Origin: Gemmatimonadaceae bacterium
Lineage (GTDB): Bacteria > Gemmatimonadota > Gemmatimonadetes > Gemmatimonadales > Gemmatimonadaceae
Assembly: GCA_035253645.1 (NCBI GenBank)
Contig: DATFBW010000257.1
Span: forward strand, 1-63,919
Length of the DNA: 63,919 nucleotides
Reading direction: 5' to 3'
In this document: positions 1 through 57,144 of the stretch, piece after piece
How positions within the stretch are numbered: the stretch's first letter is position 1
Layout of the letters: every line of letters begins with the position of its first letter
Made by a program: the position numbers and the translations under genes
The notes under the pieces: model-generated
The model's database searches: none
What the model was told of the DNA's origin: nothing
Seen by the model: the letters and a program-made list of their open reading frames with translations, nothing else

Positions 1-31
1 CAACTGGTCGTTCGACGTCGCATCAGGCGAA

Positions 32-844
32 GTGCCCTCGATGGCCCAGGCAGCCGTCGTGGGCCAGGATGAGATTTTCGACCAGATCCAGGCCACGTTT
101 TTCCGCGGCACGAATGCCCTGCGCCTGCAGTTCGATGACACCGGTACCTTCGATCTATGGGACGATGCCAGAGTGATCGTCTGGTACCCGAAAGATGGTT
201 GTCAGCCGGACGTGGCACGGGCTGACCTTGTAGGGCGAGTCCTTCCACTCGCGCAACACGAGCGCGGCCTCATCGCCTTGCACGCGAGTGCCGTTTGTCT
301 GCCAGCCGGCACGATCGCGTTCATGGCGCCCAAGAACTACGGCAAGAGCTCACTCGCCATGTCTCTCGTTACCGAGCATCAGGCGCAACTCCTCACAGAC
401 GATACGCTCATCGTTTCGCCCGGTCGAGGCGTTGCGGTTCCCGGCGTGCATAGCGTTAGGCTCTGGGGCGAAACGGCGCGGCGCTTCGAAGGACTTGGGA
501 GGGGACGTCCTGTTCTGAGCGAGAAGGAGATCTTCGAAGACTTGCCGCAGACGTCGCTCGCAATGCAGGAATCGCCACTCGTGGCGCTCTATACGATCGT
601 GCCTGAAGAGCCACAAATGACGCCCGTCGTGCGCCGCGAAGCACTGGACGGCGCTCACGCGACGATAGCGCTCATCCAATACCAGAAACTTGGTGCACTC
701 CTCGGCGGGCCGGACGCGGCTCAGGTTTTCGACCGCGCGGCGGCACTCGCGGCGCGTTGTCCGGTTTACGCGCTTCATATCGCTCGCGACTGGGCGCGCT
801 TGCCGGAAGCGGCACGCGTACTCGCGGACTGGCACGCTCGTTAG
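32..844 (+). CDS. HPr kinase/phosphorylase-like (HprK-related) P-loop kinase; the frame is open to the window start, so it may be 5' truncated
   Basis: 270-aa ORF. Walker-A-like APKNYGKS (nt 326-349) is followed by LLTDDTLIV, as in HprK C-terminal domains. The TAG stop lies inside a CGTTAGGC octamer. Located near a lasso-cyclase-like gene. Confidence 0.5.
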   Translation: MPSMAQAAVVGQDEIFDQIQATFFRGTNALRLQFDDTGTFDLWDDARVIVWYPKDGCQPDVARADLVGRVLPLAQHERGLIALHASAVCLPAGTIAFMAPKNYGKSSLAMSLVTEHQAQLLTDDTLIVSPGRGVAVPGVHSVRLWGETARRFEGLGRGRPVLSEKEIFEDLPQTSLAMQESPLVALYTIVPEEPQMTPVVRREALDGAHATIALIQYQKLGALLGGPDAAQVFDRAAALAARCPVYALHIARDWARLPEAARVLADWHAR

Positions 845-851
845 GCAGTGC

Positions 852-1925
852 TCAGGCGAGCAGCGCGGCGATGCGCCGGGCCGCTGTGCCGTCTCCAAAG
901 ATCTGCGGTGAGGTGCCTGGGGGTTTTCGTGCGGCACGGGCGGCCGCGACGATGGCCATCGGGTCCGAACCTGCCAGCACGTTCCACCCCGTGTTGACCG
1001 TCTCCACCCACTCGGTTTCCGGACGCAGCGTCACGCACGGCACCTGGAAGAAGAACGCTTCCTTCTGGACGCCGCCCGAGTCGGTCAGGATCACTCGCGC
1101 GTGCTTTTCGAGCGTCAGCATGTCGAGATATCCAACGGGATCCACGAGCCGCACGTGGCGCCGCGCGTTGTTGTGCGCGCCGAGGCGGGCACGTGTACGT
1201 GGGTGCAGCGGGAAGATGACGGGCTCGCCGATGGCGTCCAGCGCGTGGAGCAGCCGCTCCAGCACCGCGGGATCGTCGGTGTTGTATGCGCGGTGCACGG
1301 TCGCGAGCAGGTACGCGCCGGGGAGCACGCCTAACGAGTCGAGTACACGCGATCGCTGCTGCGCGCGTTGCGCGAAGTGCAAAACCGAATCGTACATCAC
1401 ATCGCCAACCAGATGCACGCCACGCGCAATCCCTTCACGCGCCAGGTTGTCGACGGCCGTCTGCGTAGGACAGAAGAGGAGGTCCGCACAGTGATCTGTC
1501 AGAACACGGTTGTGTTCCTCCGGCATCGTGCGGTTGAAGGAGCGCAATCCTGCCTCCACGTGCGCCAACGGAACGCCCAGCTTCACCGCCGCCAGCGCAG
1601 CCGCCAACGTCGTGTTGGTGTCACCGTACACCAGCGCGTAATCTGGCCGCTCGTCCACGAGTGTGCGCTCGACGGCGACCATCATGCGTCCCGTTTGCTC
1701 CGCGTGAGATCCCGAGCCGATCGCGAGGAAGTGGTCCGGCGGCGCAATCCCCATCTCGCTGAAGAACACATCGGACATTTGCGGGTCGTAGTGTTGGCCC
1801 GTGTGCACAATGACTTCGTTATGCCCCGCTTCTTTCAGCGCGACACTCACTGGAGCTGCTTTGATGAACTGCGGCCGAGCGCCGACGATCGAGGCGACCT
1901 TCAAACGCCCTCCTCTGTGGGGCAT
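852..1925 (-). CDS. wecB: UDP-N-acetylglucosamine 2-epimerase (non-hydrolysing)
   Basis: N-terminus KVASIVGARPQFIKAAP, plus HTGQHYD, GDTNTTLAAALAA and HVEAGLRSFN motifs typical of WecB/MnaA. ATG at 1925 chosen over the longer ORF start at 1955. Confidence 0.85.
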   Translation of the reverse strand: MPHRGGRLKVASIVGARPQFIKAAPVSVALKEAGHNEVIVHTGQHYDPQMSDVFFSEMGIAPPDHFLAIGSGSHAEQTGRMMVAVERTLVDERPDYALVYGDTNTTLAAALAAVKLGVPLAHVEAGLRSFNRTMPEEHNRVLTDHCADLLFCPTQTAVDNLAREGIARGVHLVGDVMYDSVLHFAQRAQQRSRVLDSLGVLPGAYLLATVHRAYNTDDPAVLERLLHALDAIGEPVIFPLHPRTRARLGAHNNARRHVRLVDPVGYLDMLTLEKHARVILTDSGGVQKEAFFFQVPCVTLRPETEWVETVNTGWNVLAGSDPMAIVAAARAARKPPGTSPQIFGDGTAARRIAALLA

Positions 1926-1982
1926 CAGTGCGTGAGGACGATGCCGCGTGCGCAAAGGGAACGCCAGAGATAGCCTTACGAC

Positions 1983-3881
1983 ATGACCGCCATCGTCGGC
2001 CTCTTTGGAATCGGCGCGCGCGAAAGCGCAACGCTCGTCCGAGCTGCCCTGACCGTCATGGGGCCGCGTGGAAGCGACCGCGTGGAGACCTGGGTAGAAG
2101 ACGATTTGGCGTTAGGCGCCGTGTCCGACCACTGGGAAGTCGGCGGCGCTACCGACGCCTCCGCCCGCGTCGCGTACAATGCAGCCGCGGCAGTCGCCTG
2201 CGACGCATCGCTCTACTACCTCAGCGACCTTCGGAGCGCGCTCCAGGCAACTGGCGCGACCCCAGCCACGGACTCTCCCGCTGGGCTCATCCTGGCGGCA
2301 TACAGCGTTTGGGGAGAGCGGTGTGTCGATCACATCGAAGGAGATTTTGCGTTCATCCTGTGGGACCGTCAGGCGCGGAAAGTAGTTGCGGCCCGCGACC
2401 ACGCCGGTACGCGGCCGCTGTTTTATAGCGTTTTCCCCAGCGGCCTCGTGGTGGCGTCGCGCCTGGACGCCCTAACGAGTATCCCGCAGTTCAACCGTGC
2501 GTTCAACCTCATGTCGATCGCCGACGACGCGCTTTTTCTGCGTGTCAACGCCCCCGAGGCGACGGCGTACCGCGATGCCGCACGATTGCCTGCGGCACAT
2601 TGCCTAACGTGGACTGCCGGTACCAGTCCACGCGTTTCGCGCTGGTGGGACGTGCCGATCTTTTTGCGCGGCGACGGGCCGCCATTCGCTGAGGCACTGG
2701 AAGAATTACGCCGGCTGCTGATTGCCGCAGTCGCCGAACGATCGAGGCATCCCGGCGGAACGGCTATCTGGCTGAGCGGCGGTTACGACTCTTCAGCCCT
2801 CTTTGCCGCATCGCATTTGGCCGCGGAAAGGGGCGTGCCGCCGGCGCAACCAATCTCGATATCGCATCCACCTGGCGATCCGGGTCGCGAAGATGAGTTG
2901 ATCGAAAGCTCGACCCGCTTTTGGCGCGTCACTCCCACGTGGCTGGACGTCGATGACGTGCCTTCGCTCGTTGCTCCCGTCGCAGCCGCGCGCGTGCGCG
3001 ACGAGCCGTTCTACCACATTTATGAATTGTCGAATCGTGCGCTTGCTCACACGACTCGTGAGGCAGGGCTGCGCGCCGCGATCGTCGGCAACGGCGGGGA
3101 CCAGTTCTTTTCCGCCGGTGTTGCGCGGCTAGCCGATCACTTTCGTCGCGGTCATTTCAACACTCTCGTCCGTGAGTGGCGCGAAGCAGGCGGCGGTAGA
3201 GATTGGCGCCTATTCGTGCGGACAGTCGTTATGCCCAACATGCCGACTCTCGTGCTCGCCGTTGCGAGCGGGCTACGACAAAAGCGCACGATGCAACAGA
3301 GGTTGACACGTCGATTACCGGCCTGGACAAACGGAAAATTCGGCGACCTCGACGCACTGCAGACCCTGAATAGGGCAGGCTTGAAGCGCAGGACTGGCGA
3401 GGGTCACGCGGCCGTCGAACAGAGTTGGTTCTTGCGCCACGTAACGGGGGAGCGGATAAACGCTGCCTATACCGCGACCGGCCTGCTCGACGGTATCGAA
3501 GTGAAATCCCCCTTCTTTGACTCACGCGTGCTTCGTTTTGCAGCTGGCAGGCCTCTTGATGAGAGCTACGCAAGACAGGAGAACAAGAGACTTCTGCGGG
3601 GCGCGTTTCGCGGTCACCTGCCGGATGAGGTAATAGGCCCACGGGCGGCGCGCACCGGGCTTCCTTACCGGTCGTTACGCCGAGCGGCTTCAGAGCATGC
3701 AGCGTGGGTAGTAGCCGAGGGGCAAGGGGGTATGATACTTGCTGACTTCGGCGTGATAGACGGAAGCAATTTCCTCAGTTCAGCCGGCCGTATAGCTGAG
3801 CAGGGGGTTGCTGACGTGGAAGAAGCTGCCGCTCTTGTGGCGTGTACGCAGGTGGAGTGTTGGTTGCGTGCCCGTTCGTAG
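1983..3881 (+). CDS. Asparagine synthetase B homologue lacking the N-terminal Cys nucleophile; candidate lasso peptide cyclase (C protein)
   Basis: 632 aa. It starts MTAIVGLFG rather than MCG. It has GDFAFILWD...ARDHAGTRPLFY and the PP-loop WLSGGYDSS. A precursor-like small ORF lies 105 nt downstream. Confidence 0.7.
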   Translation: MTAIVGLFGIGARESATLVRAALTVMGPRGSDRVETWVEDDLALGAVSDHWEVGGATDASARVAYNAAAAVACDASLYYLSDLRSALQATGATPATDSPAGLILAAYSVWGERCVDHIEGDFAFILWDRQARKVVAARDHAGTRPLFYSVFPSGLVVASRLDALTSIPQFNRAFNLMSIADDALFLRVNAPEATAYRDAARLPAAHCLTWTAGTSPRVSRWWDVPIFLRGDGPPFAEALEELRRLLIAAVAERSRHPGGTAIWLSGGYDSSALFAASHLAAERGVPPAQPISISHPPGDPGREDELIESSTRFWRVTPTWLDVDDVPSLVAPVAAARVRDEPFYHIYELSNRALAHTTREAGLRAAIVGNGGDQFFSAGVARLADHFRRGHFNTLVREWREAGGGRDWRLFVRTVVMPNMPTLVLAVASGLRQKRTMQQRLTRRLPAWTNGKFGDLDALQTLNRAGLKRRTGEGHAAVEQSWFLRHVTGERINAAYTATGLLDGIEVKSPFFDSRVLRFAAGRPLDESYARQENKRLLRGAFRGHLPDEVIGPRAARTGLPYRSLRRAASEHAAWVVAEGQGGMILADFGVIDGSNFLSSAGRIAEQGVADVEEAAALVACTQVECWLRARS

Positions 3882-3985
3882 GGGGCCGGACGCTTAAGAA
3901 AACTTTGAACCAAGGGGCGCTGGGTGCGCCTCACTTTCCGCCGGGCAACGGCTCGGCGTCATTTGACGAGGAGGCCGCAACCCAC

Positions 3986-4120
3986 ATGTATCAGAGCCCA
4001 GAGTTAAAGAAATTGGGAACGTTCCGCGAAATCACGAAGTCAGGCATCAGCGGACCGGCAGACCGCATCGGAATGCAGAATGACGGCTGCACGTTCACTC
4101 CTGGCGGCCGCTGCTCGTAA
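3986..4120 (+). CDS. Candidate lasso peptide precursor (44 aa): MYQSPELKKLGTFREITK / SGISGPADRIGMQNDGCTFTPGGRCS
   Basis: The leader fits YxxPxLx3Gx5Tx exactly (Y2, P5, L7, G11, T17). The predicted core has Ser1 and Asp8 (macrolactam position), two Cys and a C-terminal Ser. GAGGAGG lies about 12 nt upstream of the ATG, and a strong terminator follows. Confidence 0.6.
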   Translation: MYQSPELKKLGTFREITKSGISGPADRIGMQNDGCTFTPGGRCS

Positions 4121-4159
4121 TCTCACGATACGAGTAGTAGGATCGCGGAATGATCCGCA

Positions 4160-4189
4160 GGGCGGCGCTCAAGCGCCGCCCTTTCGTTT
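4160..4189. terminator. Rho-independent terminator between convergent genes
   Basis: GGGCGGCGC-tcaa-GCGCCGCCC perfect 9-bp GC stem followed by TTTCGTTT. Confidence 0.65.
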
Positions 4190-4196
4190 GCGCGTC

Positions 4197-5174
4197 CTAG
4201 ACGCCAGTGACCGCCGGCGTGGAACGTCCGCGCAGAAAATACCACAGGCCCAGAGGCGCGAGACCGAGCAAGAGCAGGCGCCACGAGAGCATAGCCTCCG
4301 CCCCTCCTTCAAGCCCCGCGATGCGGAACAGGGACTCGAACGCAGCCTCACCCACACCTAAACCCCCGGGCGTCACCGGGATGTTGTTGGCGACGAATCC
4401 CAAGGAAGCGAGGAACGGCACGGCCATTGTCGCCTCACCGGCATTTGGGTTGGTGATGACGACGAGCAACCAGACGATACCCATGCTGAGCGCATGGGCT
4501 ACCAGCGAGATCCCGACAGATCCTGCGAGGATTCGAAGATGCCGCCGGAAATTCTGCATCGTGTTGAGCATCAGCGCCGGGTAGCCGCGCAGCGGAAACG
4601 TGCGCAGAACCCATTGCACGCCACCGAGCGCGCGGGCGCGACGCGACGTTGATACGGCCACCGCGAAAATGATCAGCAACGAGCTCAACGCCGCGAGCAA
4701 CAGCAGCATGCGCAGCAGTGCGGACTCTCTGATCAAGGGCAAACACAGTGGCGCGGCGATAATCGGAAATAGCGTCAACGCGAGGAGACCCATCACGCGA
4801 TCGAGCAGAAGGAGGGTCCCTATCTCGGTCCGCCTCCCCGCGGCTCCCTGTGTCGTGTAGAACAAACGCACGATGTCGCCCCCTCCTCCGGGCAGCACGA
4901 GCGTAAACAGGTTCGCAATCAGCGAAAGCCCGAGCGAATCGCGCAGCGTCAGACGCATACCACTCGGCTGAAAGAGCAGGCACACGCGCTGCGAGATCAG
5001 AACGACGACGATGAAAAGGAGACAGAGAGCGAGAAGAGTCAGGCCCCAGTGGCTTGTCATCCCGCGTAACGAGCTCCAGTCGACTCGTCCAGTACGCGCG
5101 AGAAAACCGAGCACGGTGCCGGCGATGGCCAGCCTAACGATGCCGAGCCAAATACGCCTTTGGCGCGTCGTCAT
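4197..5174 (-). CDS. UPF0104 / LPG-synthase-TM family polytopic membrane protein (flippase-like domain)
   Basis: 325 aa, multi-TM, with the family signature region NNIPVTPGGLGVGEAAF near the C-terminus. Confidence 0.65.
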   Translation of the reverse strand: MTTRQRRIWLGIVRLAIAGTVLGFLARTGRVDWSSLRGMTSHWGLTLLALCLLFIVVVLISQRVCLLFQPSGMRLTLRDSLGLSLIANLFTLVLPGGGGDIVRLFYTTQGAAGRRTEIGTLLLLDRVMGLLALTLFPIIAAPLCLPLIRESALLRMLLLLAALSSLLIIFAVAVSTSRRARALGGVQWVLRTFPLRGYPALMLNTMQNFRRHLRILAGSVGISLVAHALSMGIVWLLVVITNPNAGEATMAVPFLASLGFVANNIPVTPGGLGVGEAAFESLFRIAGLEGGAEAMLSWRLLLLGLAPLGLWYFLRGRSTPAVTGV

Positions 5175-5821
5175 GCGGGTTGGACGCTCGCTGACTCTGT
5201 CAGATCGCGAACGTAGAGATTGGCGTGCAGTCCGTACCGTTCAATCGAATGCAGGAACTGAAAGCCATGTTTGCGATAGAACGCGTTGGCCAACGGATCC
5301 CCCGGCGTCACGCAGGCTTTAACAGAAGCCGCGCCGGACTCACGCAATGTAGAAAGTGCGTTTCGCAGGAGCAGACTTCCCACCGTCCCTCGCTCGGGCA
5401 ATTTGCGTCCGCGATACTCTGGCCTGACCGCGATCGACAGCAACTCCGCGGAGACATCGGGGGCCGGCTCGGACCGCGGCACCAATACGGACCGCGCGAT
5501 ACGCGCGGCTAGACGCCAGCGCTGCCGGCTGGGAAGGATCGACCAAAACAGCGTCGCGGCGAAGGCAAATGCGTGATGTCGCAAGGCGGAGCGTAACAGG
5601 CGGACAGTAGACGGCGTGTAAGACAGGTATCCGACGAGTACATCGTCTGCGAAGTATCCGTCGCACAGGTAGAGTGGCTCGCCGAACATCGTCCGATGGT
5701 ACAGAACATTGAACGAGGGACCGAGGCGCGCCGAGAGGGTGTCAGGGAGTGACTGGTGTTGCAGCTCCAGGAGAGCGTCAAGGTCAGCAAGTGAGAGGCG
5801 ATGTATGCCCGCTCGCCTCAT
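5171..5821 (-). CDS. GNAT family N-acetyltransferase
   Basis: C-terminal GNAT fold motifs (RGRKLPERGTVGSLLL...ANAFYRKHGFQF). ATG at 5821 forms an ATGA overlap with the upstream stop at 5818-5820, so the longer ORF to 5917 was rejected. Confidence 0.65.
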   Translation of the reverse strand: MRRAGIHRLSLADLDALLELQHQSLPDTLSARLGPSFNVLYHRTMFGEPLYLCDGYFADDVLVGYLSYTPSTVRLLRSALRHHAFAFAATLFWSILPSRQRWRLAARIARSVLVPRSEPAPDVSAELLSIAVRPEYRGRKLPERGTVGSLLLRNALSTLRESGAASVKACVTPGDPLANAFYRKHGFQFLHSIERYGLHANLYVRDLTESASVQPA

Positions 5822-6687
5822 CGCGCGGCGGTGGGGTTTCCGGTGAAGGGCGCCAGGAGCTCCGCGGTGCTCGTTATGCGGAATCGTTTCTGAACGAAAC
5901 GGACCATCCGCGAACACGCGTCGCGTTTCGCGGCCGCGCTCCGTATGGAGAGCGTGAACAGCTTCATGCGCGCGTCACGACAGTACTCAGACTCGAGCGG
6001 ATCGCTGAAGTCGATGAGGTGGAAGAGAAGCACCGTTGGAGTCCCGCGCCGGGCCGCGCGCGACATCGCCCAGTAAAAGGGGGGAAGTCCAAACGCCAGC
6101 GCGAACGACGGCCCGATCGGCGAGGATAGGGGGACAGGGCCGGGGAGCGGCAATTCCACGATGCCGCCGAAGGACGTTAGGCGTTGGGGTCGGATGAGCT
6201 CACGTCGTGGCCGTCCGAGTCGTTTCTCGAATGTAGCGGTAGGGAAGACCGATGAGTCGAACACATAACCGGCGGACGCGGCGATTGTGAGCGCTTCGCC
6301 GTCCATGGCGTATCCCGGTGCGCGAAAACCGATAACGCGCACGGCGAACGCGTTCTCGATGAGGGCCTTGCTCTCGGCGATCTCGCGCTCCTTCTCCTGC
6401 CGCGTTAGGCGCATGAGGTTCGGGTGGCTCACGGTATGCGACGCGAGCTCGTGACCCAACGACACCGCCTCTTGCAACAGGGCGTGCTTCGCCGGATCCC
6501 GGACATCTTCGGCGATGACGAACAGCGTCGCCGTGATTCCAAAGTCGGAAAACAGCTGCAGCATGTTGCGAACGCCGCTGGTGAAGATCGGGTCTCCCGG
6601 CCCGCCATATGTACGGCCGTGGGCGCGGAAGATCTGATGCGCACCGTCCAGGTCGACGTGCACAGCGAGCGGTTGTGGCGCGTTCAC
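5818..6687 (-). CDS. Polysaccharide deacetylase (NodB homology domain)
   Basis: HVDLDGAH, TLFVIAEDV and GHELASHTVSHPNL motifs. GTG at 6687 overlaps the upstream TGA (GTGA). Confidence 0.8.
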   Translation of the reverse strand: MNAPQPLAVHVDLDGAHQIFRAHGRTYGGPGDPIFTSGVRNMLQLFSDFGITATLFVIAEDVRDPAKHALLQEAVSLGHELASHTVSHPNLMRLTRQEKEREIAESKALIENAFAVRVIGFRAPGYAMDGEALTIAASAGYVFDSSVFPTATFEKRLGRPRRELIRPQRLTSFGGIVELPLPGPVPLSSPIGPSFALAFGLPPFYWAMSRAARRGTPTVLLFHLIDFSDPLESEYCRDARMKLFTLSIRSAAAKRDACSRMVRFVQKRFRITSTAELLAPFTGNPTAAR

Positions 6688-8378
6688 GGGCCCACCACGC
6701 GCTCGTATATACGAATCGGTGGATTCACGACGGGGTGGTCGAGCGCGGGCCGGCGTGCCCACGGCAGAAGCGGCCGAGTTTGGAAGAACGCCACGCGGCG
6801 ATAACCTAACGAGCCGTCCTCGAGAGCTCGATAAATAGCCGGAGGACACGTCGCCGCGTGAGGAGCGCCCGGGTAACTCGTATAGTCGGGAACGAGCGCG
6901 ACAAACCGCGGACGTCGCTCGCGCCAACCGTCAATGATCGTCTGTATCGCTGTTGCGCCTGTATCCGCCCGAAAGGTACTCCCGCGAAACGGGATGGCTT
7001 GACGAGAAGTCAGCGACGCCGGCATCGGCGGATGTTTGTGCTCGGACCCGAAGTATTCGAGGGCGTCGCCAGGCCGGGCGTTGCGGGCTATCCAGGCGCC
7101 GGCTGCATAACGCGAGTCCCGTACCATCCCATAGGTGAGGTCGGTGGCCCAGAGGGCAAGGATGATCACGGCGGCTCCCGCCACAGCCGCAGTGGCCCAC
7201 CTGATCGTCGGGATGCTGCGCCAGCCGGTTACGACCGCGTAGCCGGCGTACAAGGCCAGCACAAAGGTGATTGGCAATACGTAGCGCAATTGGATCACGC
7301 GCGCCGACACGAACAGGATGACGAGATACACGAGCGCGGAATAGGCGAGCAGCACACTGCGGCGGTTCCGCCTGGCTGCCAGGATAAGGCCGCCGATGCC
7401 TAACGCCAAACCGGGGAGGGACATGGCGTTCCCCAGCAGCGCGACAATCTGCGCAGCCAGGGAGACGTGGCCGCTCCAGGTGAACGGGTAATACGTCGTG
7501 AATATCACTCCACCCGAACGCGCCAACTGTGTGCGTTCACGGATGAACGTGAGATGCGCTTGCCAGCGCGCGAAGTCGATGACGAGTCCACTGCCGATGG
7601 CATAGGCACCCAGAGCTGCCGCCGTCGCAAGCGTGGCAGTGCGCCAGAACCCCGGCTGCATCCAGTACCGCTCTCTTTCGCCCGGATCGCGCATGAACGG
7701 CAGCACCAGCGGAACGAACGCGAACGACGCGAATGAGGGTTCTTTTGTTGCGACCGCACATCCGACCAGCGCCCCCAGGACCACGGCGCGCCGAGTCGTT
7801 AGGCCGCGTTTCGCGATGAGCGCAAAGGCCCACAACCCCGCCGCCGTGAAGAACAACACGGGAACGTCCACATTCGAATTCCGGGCATAATAAAACATCG
7901 GATACACCAGCATCGCGAAGATCGCGGCCACGACCCCCGTTGTCTCGTCCCACATCTCGCGCGCGATGCCGTACGCACAAATCACGATACCCACGCCCAA
8001 CAGCACAGATAAGAAATGCGCGATCCAGGTGAGGTGCTTGAGCGCGGCGACCGGATCGTCGAAGCCATGCGGGTACGCCACGGTCGGTTTTTCGAGTCCG
8101 CCCGTTGCCGCGAGGTAGCCTATGTATGGCGCGAAGGACCCCAGCACCATGAACGGATGCAACATGGGGTAACCGAGGTTCGGATTCATCTCGGCTTTCG
8201 GCGCGATAATGTCGTGCGCCTGAGCGAGCGGCCCTAACGGGGGTTCGTCATCCACCCCCCACGCATTGGTGCGATCTGCCGCGGTGGCGTGCGGAGCCCC
8301 CCACCAGAACGCCGGTGTGTAGAGCAGGAGCGCGACGATCCCCAGGAGCAACGCACTGCGCGGCCAGCCTGACCGCAC
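6684..8378 (-). CDS. GT-C fold membrane glycosyltransferase (ArnT/PMT family 39-like)
   Basis: About 12 TM segments. The first periplasmic loop WGVDDEPPLGPL carries acidic residues. It sits in an operon with a deacetylase and a GNAT. The start is uncertain (GTG 8378 chosen; the ORF extends to 8456). Confidence 0.55.
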   Translation of the reverse strand: MRSGWPRSALLLGIVALLLYTPAFWWGAPHATAADRTNAWGVDDEPPLGPLAQAHDIIAPKAEMNPNLGYPMLHPFMVLGSFAPYIGYLAATGGLEKPTVAYPHGFDDPVAALKHLTWIAHFLSVLLGVGIVICAYGIAREMWDETTGVVAAIFAMLVYPMFYYARNSNVDVPVLFFTAAGLWAFALIAKRGLTTRRAVVLGALVGCAVATKEPSFASFAFVPLVLPFMRDPGERERYWMQPGFWRTATLATAAALGAYAIGSGLVIDFARWQAHLTFIRERTQLARSGGVIFTTYYPFTWSGHVSLAAQIVALLGNAMSLPGLALGIGGLILAARRNRRSVLLAYSALVYLVILFVSARVIQLRYVLPITFVLALYAGYAVVTGWRSIPTIRWATAAVAGAAVIILALWATDLTYGMVRDSRYAAGAWIARNARPGDALEYFGSEHKHPPMPASLTSRQAIPFRGSTFRADTGATAIQTIIDGWRERRPRFVALVPDYTSYPGAPHAATCPPAIYRALEDGSLGYRRVAFFQTRPLLPWARRPALDHPVVNPPIRIYERVVGP

Positions 8379-10108
8379 TATGCGTCCCCCCTCGACGGAT
8401 CTGCTACGATGCTCACGGTGTCGGCGTCGAAGAGGATCGTGTACCGAAGCTCGCACTGTTGCTCGCGCGTGAGGCGCTGCGCGAGCCCCGCCGTTGATGG
8501 CGCGACAAGTGAGAGCGCATCGGACGGATGGAAGTACTTCGCGGATCCCATATGAATGCCGGTAAAGCTGCGCGCCAGCTCGAGCATGTCGATGCGCAAC
8601 GGTTCAGTGAGACGCAGCGCATCGTGGACGTCGATCCGCGAGTCCGAGAACCGTATGTGCCGCGTGAGCACGATTGGTCCTGGTACAGCGCTCGTAATGA
8701 GTCGCGCGATGAGCAGCCGGCGCACCAAATTGCCGAGCAACAGACTGCGAAAGACGGTGAGGTTGAGCAGGCGCAACAACACAAAGCGCCACGGCGTGAG
8801 CTGCTCCTGCCTAACGAGACCGAAGCGCGCGCGGATTGACACGGCGCCACCGGCCGCGGTCTGGAATTCGGAGAGGCCAAGGAGCTGCGACGCGTATGTG
8901 CGTCCTTCGCTGCGGGCGATCCACCCCGCGTCTTCGTAGACGAGCTGTTGGCGCGCGCGCTCGACAACGCGCATCAGGCCGCCCTTATGCAGGGCCGCCA
9001 CGGCGTAGTATTGATCTGTTCCCGACGCGTGCATGCCCTGCGAAAACGCGGTGTGGCCGCGCAGTGTCTCGCAGGGCAGCGGTTGGGGCGGGCGAGGCGT
9101 ATCATTTGCCTGACAGGCGGTGAGATAGCTCCCGAGCATCACGGGCAAGTTTTGCGCGTCGACCGTCTCCGGCGTCACAACCTCGGCGCGCTGCAAGCGC
9201 GCGCGCATGAACGCCGCGACGGCGGCTGCTTCCGGGATCACGCTCGCGAGCTGCTCGAAGCCGCCCGGGAACCAGAGCCGTGTATGGCGGCTACCAAGCG
9301 CCCCGCCTAACGAGCCATCCAGCTGCGGTGCGTACGCATAATACGCCACGGCCCGCCGCAGCGAGGCGAGGAGCGTTGCGTCACGCGTGCGGACCCAGAT
9401 GCGTGCGAGGAAGTCGATTCCCAGACTCTCGTAACCCGGATCATTGCCGCCATACTCCGCATAGAAGCCGTCCGGCGATTGGTGCGCGATGATGTCTGCG
9501 ACGATGCTGTCGGCCTGCGCGCGCCAACGTGGCTCGTCGCAATACTCCGATGCAGCGAGCACTCCCAGCGCGAAGAGGGCGTGATGGTTGGAGATGTACG
9601 CGTAGTCTTCGGTGGCGTTTGGCGCAAAAGCGATCGCGCGCGCCATCGCCGCTCGCACACGCGCCTGGTCATGCTCAGGGAGCGCGCTGCCTAACGTGCG
9701 AGCTGTCGCAGCCAGATAATAGCACGCGGCCAGCGACGCACCGTAGTCTTGCGTGTTCGGACCAACCGAATCGAAAGCACCGTTCCGGTGCTGGCGCCGC
9801 AGCAACTCGTCGAGTGCCGCGCGCGTCCACACGAGAAGCTCGTGCGAGTCGCGATAGCGGTTGTCCGGAAGGTCGAGGCGCCAGAGCCACGCGAGCGGCA
9901 GCATCCCTGCCCACTGCAAGACGCCAATCGGAAAATCCCTGAATTTCCACGCCCAGTTTTCGCGATCAAAACTCCCGTACGTCCGGGAAGCCGGCTCGCG
10001 GTCGATTTTTCCCAGGAAGCGTGGCACCTGCGCGAGGACGAAGGGCGCATAGATCGTCGCGCGCGCCGTATCGACCAGGACGGACTCCGTTCGCAGCACC
10101 TCAGTCAT
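8378..10108 (-). CDS. Conserved hypothetical protein, possibly an alpha/alpha-toroid (heparinase II/III or lyase-like) fold
   Basis: 576-aa soluble ORF, translationally coupled on both sides. It contains ISNHHALFALGV and several W/Y-rich helical repeats. No confident family assignment from sequence alone. Confidence 0.35.
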   Translation of the reverse strand: MTEVLRTESVLVDTARATIYAPFVLAQVPRFLGKIDREPASRTYGSFDRENWAWKFRDFPIGVLQWAGMLPLAWLWRLDLPDNRYRDSHELLVWTRAALDELLRRQHRNGAFDSVGPNTQDYGASLAACYYLAATARTLGSALPEHDQARVRAAMARAIAFAPNATEDYAYISNHHALFALGVLAASEYCDEPRWRAQADSIVADIIAHQSPDGFYAEYGGNDPGYESLGIDFLARIWVRTRDATLLASLRRAVAYYAYAPQLDGSLGGALGSRHTRLWFPGGFEQLASVIPEAAAVAAFMRARLQRAEVVTPETVDAQNLPVMLGSYLTACQANDTPRPPQPLPCETLRGHTAFSQGMHASGTDQYYAVAALHKGGLMRVVERARQQLVYEDAGWIARSEGRTYASQLLGLSEFQTAAGGAVSIRARFGLVRQEQLTPWRFVLLRLLNLTVFRSLLLGNLVRRLLIARLITSAVPGPIVLTRHIRFSDSRIDVHDALRLTEPLRIDMLELARSFTGIHMGSAKYFHPSDALSLVAPSTAGLAQRLTREQQCELRYTILFDADTVSIVADPSRGDA

Positions 10109-13973: not shown

Positions 13974-15947
13974 CTAACCGGCGTGTGCTTCGGCGCCGGA
14001 ACTTAGTGGCCGCACATCGGCGCGAGAGGCGCCGCCGTTGCGCGTACGCGCGACACGCGATCCGTCGACAAAAGCCTGATACCAAAGTTCGAGCGACAGC
14101 AATCCCCAAAGCGAACGGCTGAAGGGCCGATCGCTCTGCAGCAATTCCTCCACGCCGCGCGGCTGATAAATCCCGCGCTCACGCGCGCTCTTCGACAACA
14201 GGGTGTCGCGCACGAAGTCGCGCACGGGGCCACGCATCCATTCGCTGAGAGGCACCGGAAAGCCCATCTTGTCACGGCGTTGCGCGACGACGTTAGGTAT
14301 GAACGGAGCCACCGCCTCGCGGAACACACGCTTGGAATCCCCACCCTGAAAGCGCACTGCCGGTGGCAGGGTCGTCACCAACTCGGCGATCCGATGGTCC
14401 AGCAGCGGCACGCGCGATTCGAGGGACACGCTCATGCTCGTGCGGTCTTCGACCTGGAGCAACGCAGGCAGCAGCGTCTTGAGGTCGAAGTTGGTCATCT
14501 TGTTGAAGTAGCTCTTGGTCGACGGGTTGTTGAAGATCTGCCTAAACGCCGCAAACATCCGATCACGGCTGTCGCGCGACCATGAGTCGCGTGTGAAGAG
14601 CGAGTCCGCGTCTTCGATGCGGCTGACCAGGCGGAAGTAACGCTGGTCCATATCGTCGAACAAACCTTCCTTGAAGAACGACTGGAGCAGTGGCCGATAT
14701 TCTCGCAGCATAGCCAGGCTTGGGGCGATGCTGTCCCACGTCACGACGTGCCGCGTGTCGTCTCCGGTGCCGTAGATCGCACCGCGCATTGCCTGCTCGA
14801 GATAGGCAACGAGATAGCGCGCGTAACCGCCGAACAACTCATCGCCGCCCTGACCGCCTAACACGACTTTGACGTGATCACGCGCGAGCCTGGACACGCA
14901 GTATTGTGGAAAGAGGCCCGGGCCCGCCGCCGGCTCATCCATCATGTAGATGAGGTGCGGCATGACGTCCACGAACTCGGCCGCGGTGGGCCAGATTTCG
15001 TGGTAGAGCGCGCCGATGCCGTCGGCGACGGCACGTGCATAACGAGTTTCGTCGTACTGGGGCCCTTCGCGGAACGCCCCGGTGAACGTCTGAAACCGGT
15101 GCGGGAACTGTTTCGCCGCGAGCGTGACGACCGTCGAGCTATCGAGACCACCCGAACAGTGCGCGCCGACAGGTACGTCGCTGCGCAGCTGCATGCGAAT
15201 GGAGTCATTCAGCAGCCACACCAGCTGCTCGCGGAAGTATTCGTCGGTGTGATGGAAGTCGAGCTCGTAACGATAGTCCCAATAGCAGACAACAGCCGGC
15301 TCCTGATCGCGTGCCGGGCGGAACGTCATGTAGTGGCCCGGCTCCAGCTTGCGGATATCGCGGAACAGCGTGCGATCGCCAAGGCAGAATTGGAACGTGA
15401 TGTACTCCTCGAGGCCGTGCCGATCGGGCTCCGAAGCAGCAAATCCGGCGGCCAGTAACGCCTTGGGTTCACTCGCGAACGCGAGCTGCTCGGCGTCCAG
15501 CGTGTAGTAGAACGGTTTAATGCCCACGCGATCGCGCGCGGCGAACAGCCGCTGCTGGCGGGCGTCCCATATCGCGAAGGCGAACATGCCGTTCAAGCGC
15601 TCGAGACAACGCTCGCCAAGCTCTTCGTACAGGTGGAGGATGACTTCCGTGTCGCTCTGCGTCCGGAACTGGTGATGCCTAACGAGCTCCCGGCGCAGCT
15701 CCACGTAATTGTAGATCTCACCGTTGAAGACGATCCAGATGCTGCCGTCTTCGTTCGACATCGGCTGCCGACCCGTTTCCAGATCGATGATCGCCAGGCG
15801 CTTGTGTCCCAGTGCGACTGGCCCATCGGCCCACTCGCCTTCGCCGTCGGGCCCGCGGTGCTCGAGCGTGTCCATCATGACGCGCAGCCGGTCGCCGTCC
15901 GGCGCGCGCTCCCGATTACGGGAGACGATACCGGCTATTCCACACAT
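13974..15947 (-). CDS. asnB: Asparagine synthase (glutamine-hydrolysing), EPS-locus type amidotransferase
   Basis: MCGIAGIV N-terminal Cys nucleophile, a full Ntn glutaminase domain, and the PP-loop CSGGLDSS. Confidence 0.9.
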   Translation of the reverse strand: MCGIAGIVSRNRERAPDGDRLRVMMDTLEHRGPDGEGEWADGPVALGHKRLAIIDLETGRQPMSNEDGSIWIVFNGEIYNYVELRRELVRHHQFRTQSDTEVILHLYEELGERCLERLNGMFAFAIWDARQQRLFAARDRVGIKPFYYTLDAEQLAFASEPKALLAAGFAASEPDRHGLEEYITFQFCLGDRTLFRDIRKLEPGHYMTFRPARDQEPAVVCYWDYRYELDFHHTDEYFREQLVWLLNDSIRMQLRSDVPVGAHCSGGLDSSTVVTLAAKQFPHRFQTFTGAFREGPQYDETRYARAVADGIGALYHEIWPTAAEFVDVMPHLIYMMDEPAAGPGLFPQYCVSRLARDHVKVVLGGQGGDELFGGYARYLVAYLEQAMRGAIYGTGDDTRHVVTWDSIAPSLAMLREYRPLLQSFFKEGLFDDMDQRYFRLVSRIEDADSLFTRDSWSRDSRDRMFAAFRQIFNNPSTKSYFNKMTNFDLKTLLPALLQVEDRTSMSVSLESRVPLLDHRIAELVTTLPPAVRFQGGDSKRVFREAVAPFIPNVVAQRRDKMGFPVPLSEWMRGPVRDFVRDTLLSKSARERGIYQPRGVEELLQSDRPFSRSLWGLLSLELWYQAFVDGSRVARTRNGGASRADVRPLSSGAEAHAG

Positions 15948-18188: not shown

Positions 18189-20114
18189 CTAACGGCTACG
18201 CATGGCTGAGAGTGAGTCGGGGCGGGCGCAATCGTAGATGGCGAAGGCGTTAGGTCCATCCCCCAGCCGCCGAAAGAGTTGGCATGCGGCAACGATGCGC
18301 TGGAATTCAGCCCGCATCCGCGCGTTATGCGGGGGATGCTCGAACGGCAATGACCAGCGAAAAACGTGCAGGCCGGGCTTTGGATACATCGAGACGTCGT
18401 AGAACGGATTGTCGATCACAATGGCCGGAGGCTGGCTGGCGAGAACCGCATTGACAGTGCTGTCCGGGCTGGACCGACTCGTGGCTCGAAATCCGATCGG
18501 TGTCGCACTGGGATATGGGCGCTTCGTAAAGTAGTTGTAGCCGTTCGTGTAGCCATAACCAAACAGCGGACGTCGTCCGGACGGATCGAGCGAATCGACC
18601 GTCGATTTGATTGTCCGAAAGAGGGCCCCAGCAATTGGCGCGGCGCGATACGATCCGCGCGGCGTTTCGATAGTCGGCTGCGTACCGCGCGCGGTGAGGG
18701 CGCCTCGCGCGAGCTCATGGTACGCGTACATCCCGACAAAGGCATACAACGCGCAAGTCGCCAACACCGCGACGCGGCGCGCGGGCACCTCTGCGATCCA
18801 TGCCGTGAGCAGCGCAGCGTACACCGGGATCTCGATCAACACCGTGAACCATTCCGTAAACTCGAACTGCCGGCGCGCACGCAGCGAGAGCGCGAAGCCG
18901 ATCAACAAGAGCAGCCATCCATTGTGATCCCGCGAGAACCCTTGCCGCGTGCCTCGCACAAGTAGCGTGACCGCCACCGCGAAAGGAAGCAGGAAGGGAA
19001 TGACGTGACGAAAGCCACGCTCAACAAGCGAATTGAAACTGAAACGGAGGAACGCTCGAACATTCCACGGAATGTTCGCGAAGCCGCTCTCGATCTGCGT
19101 GTTATCTCCCGAAAGCTGGCCAGCAGCTACTGCGGTACCCACGCTGTACGCCTTGCCTAACCACAGAAGCAGCCCCGCACAACACACAGCCAGAGCGAGC
19201 GTGGGGACGCGCCAGCGTCTTTGCGCAGGAGGACGAGCCCACTGCACAGCGCCGGACACTACTGCGACCAGGCCCGCGAGGATCACGATCTCGATCGTCA
19301 GAATCTCGAGCGTAGCTGCGCCACGGTTCGCTTGCTGGCCGACCAGGCCGAAACCTCGTACGATGTCGAATACCATCGTCGCGTCGGTCTGCGCGGCGAT
19401 CACCGCCGATCCAGCGAGGACAACGCATACAGCAGGCGTTATAGAGGCTGCGACCAGCTTCCAACTTCCCCAGTGGTTGCGGCGCGGTAAGGCGTGCCAT
19501 CCCACGACGGCCACCGAGTAGGCAGCGGCGATCCAGTAATCGTGTTTCGTGAGGACGGCGAGTCCGGCGGCAGCCGACGCGAGCACGGCGTAGCCGATGG
19601 CGGAACGCTGCATGAACGTCAGAGTAGCACACCACGACACGAGAATGAAAAGGAAGCCGAGTGGACCCGCCGGACTGTACGAGCCTAACGGTAACGGTGC
19701 GGAACCGAGGTTTGCGATGGCGACCGCTAGCAGGACGGTCACACCAGCGATCAGCCCCTGCAGTTTGGGCGGCGTAACGAGCCTAACGTACCACACAAAT
19801 GCGGCGACGATGCTCCCGTAGACGATGCTCGTCACCGCCCAAACACCTGCCAGGTCGACACCCGTGAGGCGGGTCGCACCCCCATATATCCAGATCGAAA
19901 GCGGAGGGTACGGCCAATGGAAATCACGGTACGGCACGAGCCCGTCGTGCGCGCGCGTGATCAGATCCATCATATACCCATAATCGCCCCAGAACACCGT
20001 GGTGTGTCCCCACGTGGCGATCGCGTGGAGCGCCGCGATAGTGCCTGCCACCACGAGCGCAACGAGCGTGTCGCGACGTTTCACCTCGGCGATGCCGGAT
20101 GCCTCACGCATCAC
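18189..20114 (-). CDS. Large polytopic membrane protein, function unknown (GT-C-like or polymerase-like candidate)
   Basis: 641 aa with at least 12 hydrophobic segments and a C-terminal soluble domain. Its stop TAG is followed 2 nt later by the next ATG. Confidence 0.45.
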   Translation of the reverse strand: MMREASGIAEVKRRDTLVALVVAGTIAALHAIATWGHTTVFWGDYGYMMDLITRAHDGLVPYRDFHWPYPPLSIWIYGGATRLTGVDLAGVWAVTSIVYGSIVAAFVWYVRLVTPPKLQGLIAGVTVLLAVAIANLGSAPLPLGSYSPAGPLGFLFILVSWCATLTFMQRSAIGYAVLASAAAGLAVLTKHDYWIAAAYSVAVVGWHALPRRNHWGSWKLVAASITPAVCVVLAGSAVIAAQTDATMVFDIVRGFGLVGQQANRGAATLEILTIEIVILAGLVAVVSGAVQWARPPAQRRWRVPTLALAVCCAGLLLWLGKAYSVGTAVAAGQLSGDNTQIESGFANIPWNVRAFLRFSFNSLVERGFRHVIPFLLPFAVAVTLLVRGTRQGFSRDHNGWLLLLIGFALSLRARRQFEFTEWFTVLIEIPVYAALLTAWIAEVPARRVAVLATCALYAFVGMYAYHELARGALTARGTQPTIETPRGSYRAAPIAGALFRTIKSTVDSLDPSGRRPLFGYGYTNGYNYFTKRPYPSATPIGFRATSRSSPDSTVNAVLASQPPAIVIDNPFYDVSMYPKPGLHVFRWSLPFEHPPHNARMRAEFQRIVAACQLFRRLGDGPNAFAIYDCARPDSLSAMRSR

Positions 20115-22075: not shown

Positions 22076-22654
22076 TCCTTCTCCTCTTGGTCCTGCCTCG
22101 CCTGGGCGAGTGAAAATACCGCGCCGACCGGATCGAACGATGTGCAATTGTCGCTGCTGAGAAACGAGCGATCGCTGGACTCACGCGGGACGTTGCCCGG
22201 TAGGATTTGCCGTGTATCAGCGGCCACTCGCGCCGCCGCCAGTTCGCGGCTCTGCCTCGCGCAATTATCGTGCGCTCCGCACGTCATCACCACGCCAGAG
22301 TCATCTCCGTAAGCATAAGTGGTACAATAGATTAGGCCTGCCGCCCCAGCGCGCAGAGTGGGCCCCTGCAATACCTTGCAGGGCACCGGGAGGGGCATGC
22401 ACAGATCCTGTAAACCTCAGTCAAAAGAGTGCCCTGGGGGGCGAGGTCGCGGTAATACTCCGCGGGGAGCCGACGTCGCTTCCGAGGCTGCGGTTGCTTT
22501 GCGTTCGAGAGGAATCCACCCTAGTGCTGCGCGGCTGCAACGCTTACGTAGGACTCGTCCGGCCGCTGCCACATATCATTGGAGCGCGCTAGGCTAGCGT
22601 CACCACATTAGCCCGTGGCTAGAGTGGCCGCATGATTGCGCTCCGCACCTGCCG

Positions 22655-25292: not shown

Positions 25293-25949
25293 ATGGTAGC
25301 CGCGAAACAACACACGTTTTTCAGCCCGCAGCTCATCGTCTGGACAGTTGTCTGCCTGGTGGTCGCGTTAGGCCCCTTGGCGATGGGCGTGACAACGGAA
25401 TGGTTGCGACCGATGGTCTGGCTCGCCGTCGTCCTGGGGTACCGCTGGTTCGAGCAGCGGGTGTTCACGCCGCGAGAAATTCACGGAGCGCGCAGATCCG
25501 AGTGGCTGTTCTACTCCATCTGGGCAAGCCTTGCAGGTAGCATCATCCTGCCGCCTATCGAGTTCGCGATCGTCCAGCGCCCGCTCTCGGTCCCGTGGAT
25601 GGTGTTTGGCGTAGCGCTCGCATTGCTGGGGACATGGTTACGCTACCAAAGCGTGAAGACAATCGGCGAGCATTTCTCGACGCACATCGAAGTCCGCCCG
25701 GGTCATGAGCTCGTGGACACGGGTATCATGCGTGTGATCCGCCATCCTGGTTATGCCGGCGTGATGACGTTTACGGTGGGCGCTGCGCTCATCCTGCAGA
25801 GTTTCTGGAGCCTGCTCTTCATCTGTCTTGTGTTCTGGACGACGCAGTTCATCCGGATCGTGCACGAAGAGGAAGAGCTCGGGAATAACCTTGCGGGGTA
25901 TCGCGAATACATGAAACGGACGAAGCGCCTGATTCCCTACGTCTTTTGA
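25293..25949 (+). CDS. Isoprenylcysteine carboxyl methyltransferase (ICMT/PEMT) family membrane methyltransferase
   Basis: 218 aa, 4-5 TM. GIMRVIRHPGYAGVM and the C-terminal EEEEL...YREYMKRTKRLIP signature. Confidence 0.75.
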   Translation: MVAAKQHTFFSPQLIVWTVVCLVVALGPLAMGVTTEWLRPMVWLAVVLGYRWFEQRVFTPREIHGARRSEWLFYSIWASLAGSIILPPIEFAIVQRPLSVPWMVFGVALALLGTWLRYQSVKTIGEHFSTHIEVRPGHELVDTGIMRVIRHPGYAGVMTFTVGAALILQSFWSLLFICLVFWTTQFIRIVHEEEELGNNLAGYREYMKRTKRLIPYVF

Positions 25950-25969
25950 GTCACTCGGGCGCAGAGCTC

Positions 25970-26641
25970 ATGCCTAACGCTGGTGCGCCGACGCCGACGC
26001 AGCCGGTTCTATTCACCCGGCAGCTGCTGCTGTTTACGGCGGTTTGCGCCGCGGTCGCACTCCTCCCCCTGTTGCTGGGTCCGCGCCGCGAGATGCTCCG
26101 TCCGGCGATCTGGTTAGGCGCCGTTCTGACTTATCGCTGGCTCGAGCAATCGGTCTTTCGTCCGAGTCCCGTGCGGGGCGATCGTGTGGCCGAATGGATG
26201 TTTCCCTTCATCTACCTCGGCGTGACAGGCAGCTTCCTCCTCCCGGCGCTGGAATTCGCTCTGCTTCCGCGTCCGTTGTCAGGCTCGGTGCTGACCGCGG
26301 GCCTGGTGCTCGCCGCTTTCGGAACGTTGCTGCGCTATCGCGCGATCGATGCGTTAGGCGAGCAGTTGTCGACCCACGTGGAAGTGCGTCCCGATCACCG
26401 ATTGGTCGATCACGGCGTCTACCGTCACGTGAGGCACCCGGGGACCACGGGGGCCATGATCTTCCTGCTCGGCGCCGCGCTCATCCTGCATGCGTATTAT
26501 AGCCTCATCTACATCATCGGCTTTCTGTGGGTCGTGCTCATCGTGCGCATGTTCGTAGAAGAACGCCACTCCGCCGCGCGTATGCCGGGATACCGGGAGT
26601 ACATGCTGCGGACCAAACGTGTGATCCCGTTCATCTTTTAG
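25970..26641 (+). CDS. ICMT/PEMT family membrane methyltransferase, tandem paralogue
   Basis: Same architecture: GVYRHVRHPGTTGAMIF and YREYMLRTKRVIP. ATG 25970 (ATGCCTAACG) preferred over the TTG at 25946. Confidence 0.7.
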   Translation: MPNAGAPTPTQPVLFTRQLLLFTAVCAAVALLPLLLGPRREMLRPAIWLGAVLTYRWLEQSVFRPSPVRGDRVAEWMFPFIYLGVTGSFLLPALEFALLPRPLSGSVLTAGLVLAAFGTLLRYRAIDALGEQLSTHVEVRPDHRLVDHGVYRHVRHPGTTGAMIFLLGAALILHAYYSLIYIIGFLWVVLIVRMFVEERHSAARMPGYREYMLRTKRVIPFIF

Positions 26642-47836: not shown

Positions 47837-47987
47837 CATCAAGAGGTTGTGGCATTCGCGCGGACGCCACCGCATCTGTCGTCGCGTGGCGCCTCCCTTG
47901 CACACTCTACCGCAACTATTTCACGCCTGTTCGGCAAGATTTTCCGCAGCGCGTTTTCAGTCGTTTGTACGTCGGTTCAGCGAGCAC

Positions 47988-56822: not shown

Positions 56823-56834
56823 CGACCGACTGCC

Positions 56835-57140: not shown

Positions 57141-57144
57141 TCCG

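Follow-up and report, generated by a model that had tools for sequence, protein, structure and literature searches.

A probably functional lasso peptide module of kinase, cyclase and precursor, without leader-processing genes beside it, in a glycan cluster of Gemmatimonadota

Introduction

Can a lasso peptide locus be functional when the genes for leader recognition and leader removal do not lie beside it? The question is raised by the first 4,190 nucleotides of a 63,919-nt stretch of DNA from an uncultured soil bacterium of the Gemmatimonadaceae (GenBank assembly GCA_035253645.1, contig DATFBW010000257.1, positions 1 to 63,919; hereafter the window). They carry an HPr-kinase-like gene (K), a cyclase gene (C) and a precursor gene (A), and neither of the genes for a PqqD-like RRE (B1) and a transglutaminase-like leader peptidase (B2) accompanies them. 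Lasso peptides are prized as ultra-stable scaffolds, and the rules by which RODEO and antiSMASH mine genomes generally expect a B or RRE gene beside the cyclase. Earlier knowledge of lasso clusters in Gemmatimonadota is limited to counts from genome mining (PMC11316326), and in the literature searched we found no characterised lasso cluster from this phylum.

We consider it probable, at roughly 70%, that window 1-4190 is a functional, pared-down lasso module of the order K-(wecB)-C-A, belonging to a large kinase-associated family of Gemmatimonadota. The evidence lies in the precursor, the cyclase and the kinase, each compared with relatives in complete clusters; how the leader is removed is taken up thereafter.

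Results

More than 200 homologues of the window cyclase were found, and all those with a source label belong to Gemmatimonadota. For comparison, 80 Gemmatimonadota loci were kept of 176 matches, with flanks of at most 10 kb (83 sequences), and neighbouring open reading frames (ORFs) were clustered and then scanned with Pfam and NCBIfam. The typical cluster reads B1 (PqqD, PF05402), B2 (Transglut_core3, NF033537), C, A, K, ABC ATPase, ABC-2 permease and an NTP_transf_5 nucleotidyltransferase (N); the same genes make up the kinase-type lasso clusters that have been characterised, those of paeninodin, pseudomycoidin and bsf (PMC9266682, PMC6993621, PMC10368454). The window belongs to a monophyletic branch of 13 K-C-A loci (L001 together with the window, L003-L010, L013, L017, L051 and L083, the last on a 187-kb contig), whose cyclases are 37-68% identical to that of the window. 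L001 is a metagenome contig with 99.9% identity to the window across 13.9 kb, and position 1 of the window corresponds to its position 8019. Sequence comparison thus assigns K, C and A their identity, their conservation and a common descent with the complete B1-B2-C-A-K-ABC-N clusters. The features of the module and its nearest neighbour are as follows.

1..844, forward strand: K, a homologue of HPr-kinase-related peptide kinases, 5'-truncated by the window edge; reading phase from position 2; full length 312 aa
852..1955, reverse strand: wecB, UDP-GlcNAc 2-epimerase (TIGR00236, 311 bits against a cutoff of 210)
1983..3881, forward strand: C, predicted lasso macrolactam synthetase, an AsnB homologue with Thr2 replacing Cys2 and the PP-loop SGGYDS (alignment, tree)
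3968..3974, forward strand: Shine-Dalgarno sequence GAGGAGG, 11 nt 5' of the precursor ATG
3986..4120, forward strand: A, predicted 44-aa lasso precursor (NF033521 match; conservation 3' of the cyclase)
4159..4190, forward strand: intrinsic terminator with a 10-bp G+C stem, a TCAA loop and a U-tract, and a smaller hairpin ahead of it (folding)
4197..5174, reverse strand: flippase-like membrane protein (PF03706), a convergent neighbour that opens the downstream glycan block; present in 10 of the 13 loci of the branch; listed as context, with at most a putative role in the peptide pathway

The 44 codons of the precursor ORF encode MYQSPELKKLGTFREITKSGISGPADRIGMQNDGCTFTPGGRCS, with a leader at 3986-4039 (MYQSPELKKLGTFREITK), a core at 4040-4117 (SGISGPADRIGMQNDGCTFTPGGRCS) and a stop codon at 4118-4120. 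The initial annotation, made from the sequence of the window, had recognised a lasso leader here, and this stands: the precursor scores 23.1 bits on NF033521, the curated lasso-leader model of NCBIfam, against a cutoff of 19, and the pattern YxxPxLx3Gx5Tx is complete at Y2, P5, L7, G11 and T17. A small ORF directly 3' of the cyclase carries the leader Y-x-x-P-x-(L/V)-x-x-(F/L)-G-(T/S)-(F/L)-R-(E/D)-(L/I)-T in 81 of the 83 sequences; it begins right at an ATG or GTG, with the motif running from residue 2, and altogether the motif is kept in 84 precursors from 77 loci. A relaxed regular expression for the leader by itself gives occasional spurious matches in six frames. The recurrence of the motif at residue 2 of a small ORF right after the cyclase, however, excludes a chance ORF. 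Between the leader of the window and that of L003 the codon differences are 8 synonymous and 1 non-synonymous, which argues that the precursor ORF is translated and constrained.

The signals around the gene, a GAGGAGG upstream and a hairpin terminator downstream, are found exactly where they had been described. GAGGAG (in-frame 'EE') recurs 5' of the precursor in most loci of the branch, and the terminator consists of a 10-bp stem with 9 G-C pairs and a TCAA loop (4159-4182), followed by TTTCGTTT; the folding energy of the region is -33.9 kcal/mol (z = -2.9 relative to shuffled sequences). An Rfam scan of 1-6000 placed the eukaryotic snoRNA SNORA64 on these hairpins (4111-4202, forward strand) at 27.5 bits, below the gathering score of 35, and we judge this match spurious. 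Gene callers give an 86-aa precursor that starts in the 3' end of the cyclase gene (3842-4120, forward strand, in the window; 11878-12138 in L001). That the true product has 44 aa and not 86 aa is shown by the leader, which begins M-Y, and by the conservation of its ribosome-binding site. The AT-rich codons remarked on earlier are real as well, with a G+C content of 55.6% in the precursor gene and 63.2% in the window. As the same lowering is seen in all 14 precursors of the branch, it reflects the composition of the peptide. Multiple divergent precursor genes occur in some relatives, with three copies in L024 and two each in L036, L040, L050 and L051, and L040 holds a tandem pair of cyclase-precursor units.

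Core numbering follows PMC10368454, so that Tyr, Pro, Leu and Thr of the leader fall at -17, -14, -12 and -2, and the previously predicted ring between Ser1 and Asp8 fits this register. The acceptor Asp or Glu is found at core position 8 in 75/84 precursors, among them that of the window (Asp8), and at position 9 in 7/84; core position 2 is Gly in 75/84, and position 1 varies. For these reasons an 8-residue Ser1-Asp8 macrolactam is the best reading of the alignment. An alternative 7-residue ring from Gly to Asp, with cleavage one residue later, is still conceivable. Two conserved Cys lie at core positions 17 and 25, both in the tail, and probably form a disulfide.

The C-terminal Ser pointed out in the initial annotation is present in all 14 peptides of the K-C-A branch, and in 52 of the 70 precursors elsewhere. 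It is the only hydroxyl residue invariant in the cores of the branch, where Ile, Asn, Phe, Val, Arg or Lys occupies core position 3 and a Ser or Thr never does. Paeninodin and pseudomycoidin are phosphorylated at their C-terminal Ser (PMC9266682, PMC6993621). By analogy, this Ser is most likely also the residue phosphorylated here, and the product of the locus would probably be a phosphate-tagged lasso peptide.

The cyclase, 632 aa in length, was described as an asparagine synthetase homologue without Cys2, and at 1983-3881 we find just this: a protein that starts MTAIVG, carries SGGYDSS and matches the Pfam families GATase_6/7 and Asn_synthase. The PP-loop residues S265, G266, G267, D269 and S270 are invariant in the alignment of the family. 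In a neighbour-joining tree the window cyclase falls among those of complete B1-B2-C-A-K clusters, and a long branch lies between this group and the EPS-type AsnB proteins; the question of whether it groups with lasso cyclases or with EPS amidotransferases is thus decided in favour of the former. It shares its clade with cyclases that have PqqD (PF05402) and B2 (PF13471, NF033537) genes at their side. EPS-type AsnB paralogues lie a few kb away in the same loci and start MCGIAG, with the Cys nucleophile. One of them, encoded at 13974-15947 on the reverse strand of the window, passes the amidotransferase model TIGR01536 (529 bits, cutoff 267), which the cyclase fails (154 bits), as it fails TIGR03108 (146 bits, cutoff 817).

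Position 2 of the lasso cyclases in this clade holds a hydroxyl residue (59 Ser and 21 Thr in the 81-cyclase alignment underlying the tree; codon 2 of the window gene is 1986-1988), a conservation suggesting that the N-terminal domain may have kept a function. We considered Thr2 as an Ntn-type nucleophile specific to the loci without B genes, and rejected it: Ser or Thr at this position is universal in the clade and cannot explain why B genes are missing.

Same-strand homologues of K abut the cyclase or the precursor in 67 loci. The hidden Markov model (HMM) of the K family matches the validated lasso kinase BsfK, whose sequence was taken from the methods section of PMC10368454, at E 7e-21, with a pairwise identity of 40% over the catalytic core, and in a comparison of the K profile with the PDB the top four matches are HPr kinase/phosphorylase. 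The His-Lys-Asp-Asp motif that defines lasso kinases (PMC9266682, PMC10368454) is invariant among 28 sequences as H126, K147, D165 and D166, together with S148, and it is present in the window K. HMM homology to BsfK and HprK settles K as a member of the HPr-kinase/lasso-kinase family, and the suggestion that an HPr-kinase-like tailoring enzyme is paired with a lasso precursor and cyclase is borne out. The gene had been delimited as a P-loop ORF at 32-844; its identification holds and its boundaries do not. Comparison with L001, where the intact gene lies at 7924-8862, shows that the GTG at position 32 is internal and that the 312-aa frame starts 95 nt ahead of position 1 of the window.

Neither B1 nor B2, nor the ABC transporter or N, is matched by HMMs of the clade in the 64-kb window, in the 8 kb upstream of it (L001) or in the 12 further K-C-A loci, all searched in six frames. 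In the window, L001 and the other loci of the branch the best B2 match was no better than E 0.2 and the best B1 match no better than E 1. The clade HMMs do detect BsfB1 (5e-14) and BsfB2 (4e-7) across phyla, which shows that they are sensitive enough, and as an internal control the K HMM matches the window and every locus of the branch apart from L007, whose sequence ends about 500 bp 5' of the cyclase. Individual Pfam scans of all small ORFs of the window gave no PqqD, transglutaminase or protease domain. Among the unassigned ORFs beside sister K-C-A modules no substitute protease or RRE was seen; they encode a PepSY_TM protein and otherwise proteins without a Pfam match. The B and RRE genes had been presumed to lie upstream of position 1, and this expectation fails for L001 as for the window and the other K-C-A loci. 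It had also been proposed that the lack of B or RRE genes near the locus would speak against a lasso peptide. None lies nearby, and the comparative evidence nonetheless upholds the lasso reading, so that this yardstick was too strict.

Partial clusters are also found outside the K-C-A branch. Thirteen loci have the order B1-C-A-K-ABC without B2 or N (L012, L014-L016, L021, L022, L025, L027, L033, L040, L057, L067 and L079), and four of them share a metagenome-assembled genome (MAG) with a complete cluster (L022/L074, L027/L068, L067/L062 and L079/L054). Two further loci, L071 and L081, have C and A only within flanks of 7.6-10 kb. At L043:1999-3911 a cyclase of the K-C-A branch is accompanied by genes for an ABC-2 permease and an NTP_transf_5 protein downstream of the precursor, on the opposite strand; the contig is cut inside the cyclase, and the locus may represent an intermediate architecture. 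In many Gemmatimonadaceae the complete cluster sits between the genes for ribosomal protein S7 and EF-G (the str operon region). Examples flanked by rpsG or fusA are L060 (rpsG at 1340-1810) and L070 (fusA at 7817-10072), as well as L031, L035, L037, L045, L053, L056, L068 and L077. The bsf cluster of Bradymonas is likewise bordered by ribosomal protein genes (PMC10368454).

The K-C-A module is embedded inside a conserved glycan cluster. It had been placed at the edge of that cluster, which does not hold: in L001, the 8 kb that precede the window carry genes for SxtJ, DUF5989, a carbamoyltransferase, a GDSL lipase, Big_2 proteins and a protein of the sulfatase family. The opposite-strand wecB gene noted between kinase and cyclase is correctly identified, as its TIGR00236 match passes the cutoff; its true start is likely the TTG at 1904, giving 350 aa, the length also called in L001. 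The gene adjoins the module in every locus of the branch, either between K and C (the sub-branch of the window) or after A (the others). The branch has 1-4 sulfatase-family genes upstream; these paralogues (PF00884, sulfatase/alkaline-phosphatase superfamily) lie directly 5' of K throughout the branch (L001:5912-7630, L010:1011-8906, L013:2033-7885 and L083:16040-19262). Downstream follow genes for the PF03706 flippase-like protein, a GNAT protein, a polysaccharide deacetylase, PMT_2, a 576-aa protein without a Pfam match and the EPS-type AsnB. A Pfam scan of 50 genes, read for its 25 commonest families, shows many GT2, epimerase/dehydratase and methyltransferase genes in the remaining window.

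An obligatory linkage between glycan cluster and module was considered and rejected, since L085 has a related glycan cluster that lacks K-C-A; the peptide module is thus an accessory to the glycan cluster. A more distant homologue of the flippase in L086 stands in an unrelated context. Neither Pfam nor NCBIfam matches several sizeable ORFs of the glycan cluster (8378-10108 and 18189-20114 on the reverse strand; 22212-22592, 47847-48536 and 56546-57235 on the forward strand), and one of these, the 576-aa ORF, is shared by six loci within the K-C-A branch. Paired membrane methyltransferase paralogues of the ICMT/PEMT type lie at 25293-26641 on the forward strand. No sigma-70-like promoter was found in 1-5200, a negative that says little in Gemmatimonadota.

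Discussion

We propose the following course of events. The 44-aa precursor would be translated from its own ribosome-binding site, and K would phosphorylate the linear precursor, most likely at the invariant C-terminal Ser. The 18-residue leader would then be cut after Thr(-2)-Lys(-1) by a protease encoded outside the locus, and the ATP-dependent cyclase would couple the amine of Ser1 to the side chain of Asp8, giving the 8-residue macrolactam expected from the register. The tail Cys at 17 and 25 would probably oxidise to a disulfide. Phosphosite, ring, disulfide and threaded topology are all extrapolated from characterised relatives.

Several observations weigh against this proposal. No product has been observed, the peptide being predicted from genes, and an exporter is not encoded locally. 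The best NCBIfam match of the cyclase is the lasso cyclase model NF033535, at a score of 189 bits that falls below the cutoff of 525, and the EPS-type AsnB at 13974-15947 (reverse strand) outscores it on this model (286 versus 189, both below the cutoff). The P-loop of K, APKNYGKS (A-P-K-x-x-G-K-S throughout the clade), lacks the first two Gly of GxxGxGKS, and K scores 21-22 bits on TIGR04352 (HprK_rel_A), where the cutoff is 200 and the match covers only the P-loop core. BsfK targets a ring Ser (Ser3) and not the C-terminal one (PMC10368454). With regard to leader removal, B1/B2 pairs can be highly precursor-specific (PMC6993621), and the 11 MAGs with a K-C-A module give no second lasso locus among the 80 loci kept of 176 matches. 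The outscoring by an EPS-type AsnB means that NF033535 is narrow and alone does not discriminate here, and it is context and phylogeny, not this model, that carry the cyclase assignment. For automated annotation, the ranking of an EPS-type AsnB above a true cyclase is a trap.

That the locus does not make a lasso peptide at all, the AsnB homologue being an amidotransferase of the glycan pathway and the small ORF incidental, could be argued from the position of the module within a conserved glycan cluster and from the failure of NF033535 to separate the cyclase from its paralogue. We give this hardly any credence. The protein has no Cys2 nucleophile, unlike the MCGIAG paralogues, stands on a long branch from them and nests with the cyclases of complete clusters; precursor and K co-occur with it in nearly all loci, which already contradicts such a reading, and a related glycan cluster exists without the module. 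A decaying, productless remnant of a complete cluster that has lost B1, B2, the transporter and N would account for the local disappearance of four to five ancestral genes and for the opposite-strand wecB that splits K from C-A in the sub-branch of the window. It is nevertheless very improbable, as K, C and A are full-length with their catalytic residues in 12-13 loci across a cyclase identity of 40-68%, the leader has changed at 8 synonymous sites to 1 non-synonymous, the ribosome-binding site and the terminator are kept, and L051 even has a duplicated precursor. A less remote alternative, though still an unlikely one, concerns the tailoring: K could act at another site or polyphosphorylate, or the phosphate could be a handle for further modification such as glycosylation by the neighbouring enzymes. 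BsfK phosphorylates core Ser3 (PMC10368454), polyphosphorylation is described for ThcoK, SyanK and PsmK, and the attachment of hexoses to the phosphate for PsmN (PMC9266682, PMC6993621); no N is encoded in the window, yet glycosyltransferases and wecB lie all around the module. Core position 3 is, however, never Ser or Thr in the branch, its sole invariant hydroxyl is the C-terminal Ser, and the glycan cluster also occurs without K-C-A.

For a functional lasso module, the main question is then how the leader is removed. We lean slightly, at less than even odds, towards B1 and B2 encoded elsewhere in the genome and acting in trans, because YxxPxL and Thr(-2) show the same strict conservation that they have in complete clusters; Gemmatimonadota genomes also often have several lasso loci. 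As only 80 of the 176 matches were kept, the lack of a second locus is weak evidence against a supply in trans, and equally weak evidence for maturation independent of B. The latter, which we hold to be nearly as likely while still rating it as doubtful, would be a self-sufficient system in which K, C and A suffice, a housekeeping protease cuts the leader, and C, perhaps aided by K, folds and cyclises the core. In its favour, the monophyletic branch of 13 loci retains K in cis and never B1, B2, ABC or N, down to a cyclase identity of about 40%. The relatives without B2 retain B1 in cis and the K-C-A branch does not, which suggests that B1 is dispensable here and not merely displaced. There is also precedent: pseudomycoidin, from a kinase-type cluster, was made without B1/B2 in E. 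coli and B. subtilis, and a Stanieria cluster has C, A, K and a glycosyltransferase and no B (PMC6993621). On the other side, YxxPxL and Thr(-2), which are read by B1 and B2, are intact in 14/14 leaders of the branch. A YxxPxL triple mutant in the Bsf system left phosphorylation unaffected, so that K is not known to read the motif (PMC10368454). K and C also have no extra domain compared with their counterparts in complete clusters, the cyclases being about 20 aa shorter. Should the module have been minimal for long, without RRE or peptidase, one might tentatively picture a leader read by K and/or C, and a phospho-Ser product perhaps decorated or exported by glycan genes (wecB, the flippase-like gene, PMT_2, the sulfatase family) that replace N and ABC.

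Lasso clusters tailored by a kinase were known before, and the literature makes a single mention of a C-A-K cluster without B genes. The novelty here is a whole, coherent B-less branch that selection maintains inside a glycan cluster. The soil phylum Gemmatimonadota, most of which is uncultured, holds a large and coherent kinase-associated lasso family, one whole branch of which keeps kinase, cyclase and precursor alone under purifying selection. This branch offers a natural test of whether B is dispensable, a claim whose support so far is a single heterologous experiment and an anecdotal cluster (PMC6993621). If maturation is independent of B, two- or three-gene lasso systems would ease engineering, and mining rules would need revision. 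If B1 and B2 act in trans, the loci would be modular 'satellites' that share processing enzymes.

Among systems that resemble the module, the EPS-type AsnB amidotransferases (TIGR03108/TIGR01536) share the two-domain AsnB fold and the PP-loop with the cyclase. They start MCGIAG and pass TIGR01536, whereas the window cyclase starts MTAIVG, fails this model and is phylogenetically remote from them; the gene of a true member of the group lies at a distance of 10 kb. In LP2006 and other class IV lasso peptides both Cys are in the tail, as in the window peptide, and it is this placement from which a tail-internal disulfide is predicted here. LP2006 is not known to have an associated kinase, and for the window peptide the disulfide is only a prediction.

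The paeninodin (pade) and pseudomycoidin (psm) clusters of Firmicutes share with the window an AsnB-like cyclase, a C-terminal Ser on the precursor and a His-Lys-Asp-Asp kinase, which in these systems acts on the linear precursor (PMC9266682, PMC6993621). B1, B2, an ABC transporter and the NTP_transf_5 protein N are further common ground between pade, psm and the complete relatives in Gemmatimonadota. The branch of the window differs from pade and psm in having no B1, B2, D or N in cis, in its phylum, in a precursor gene 3' of the cyclase and in the P-loop APKxxGKS; its precursor has two tail Cys, whereas paeninodin is a class II peptide without a disulfide. The likeness of the window K to PadeK and PsmK is one of description and motif. 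The bsf cluster of Bradymonas sediminis (BsfA/B1/B2/C/D/K/N) has the YxxPxL leader and the Gly/Ser1-Asp8 register in common with the window, in a gene set with K and N (PMC10368454). BsfA ends in Asp, is phosphorylated at Ser3 and has Ile at leader position -2, and BsfB1 strongly stimulates BsfK (PMC10368454), whereas in the window the leader has Thr(-2), the core ends in Ser and carries neither Ser nor Thr at position 3, and B1 is missing.

The B-less C-A-K cluster of Stanieria cyanosphaera PCC 7437 has the same minimal set, with a PsmK-type kinase and a glycosyltransferase nearby, and was proposed as evidence of overlooked B-less lasso clusters (PMC6993621). The window shows the same type of content, with C, A and K present, no B genes, and wecB, GT2 and PMT_2 genes adjacent. 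The Stanieria cluster is a single uncharacterised cyanobacterial case mentioned in passing, whereas the Gemmatimonadota loci described here form a monophyletic, selection-maintained branch of 13 loci within a glycan cluster.

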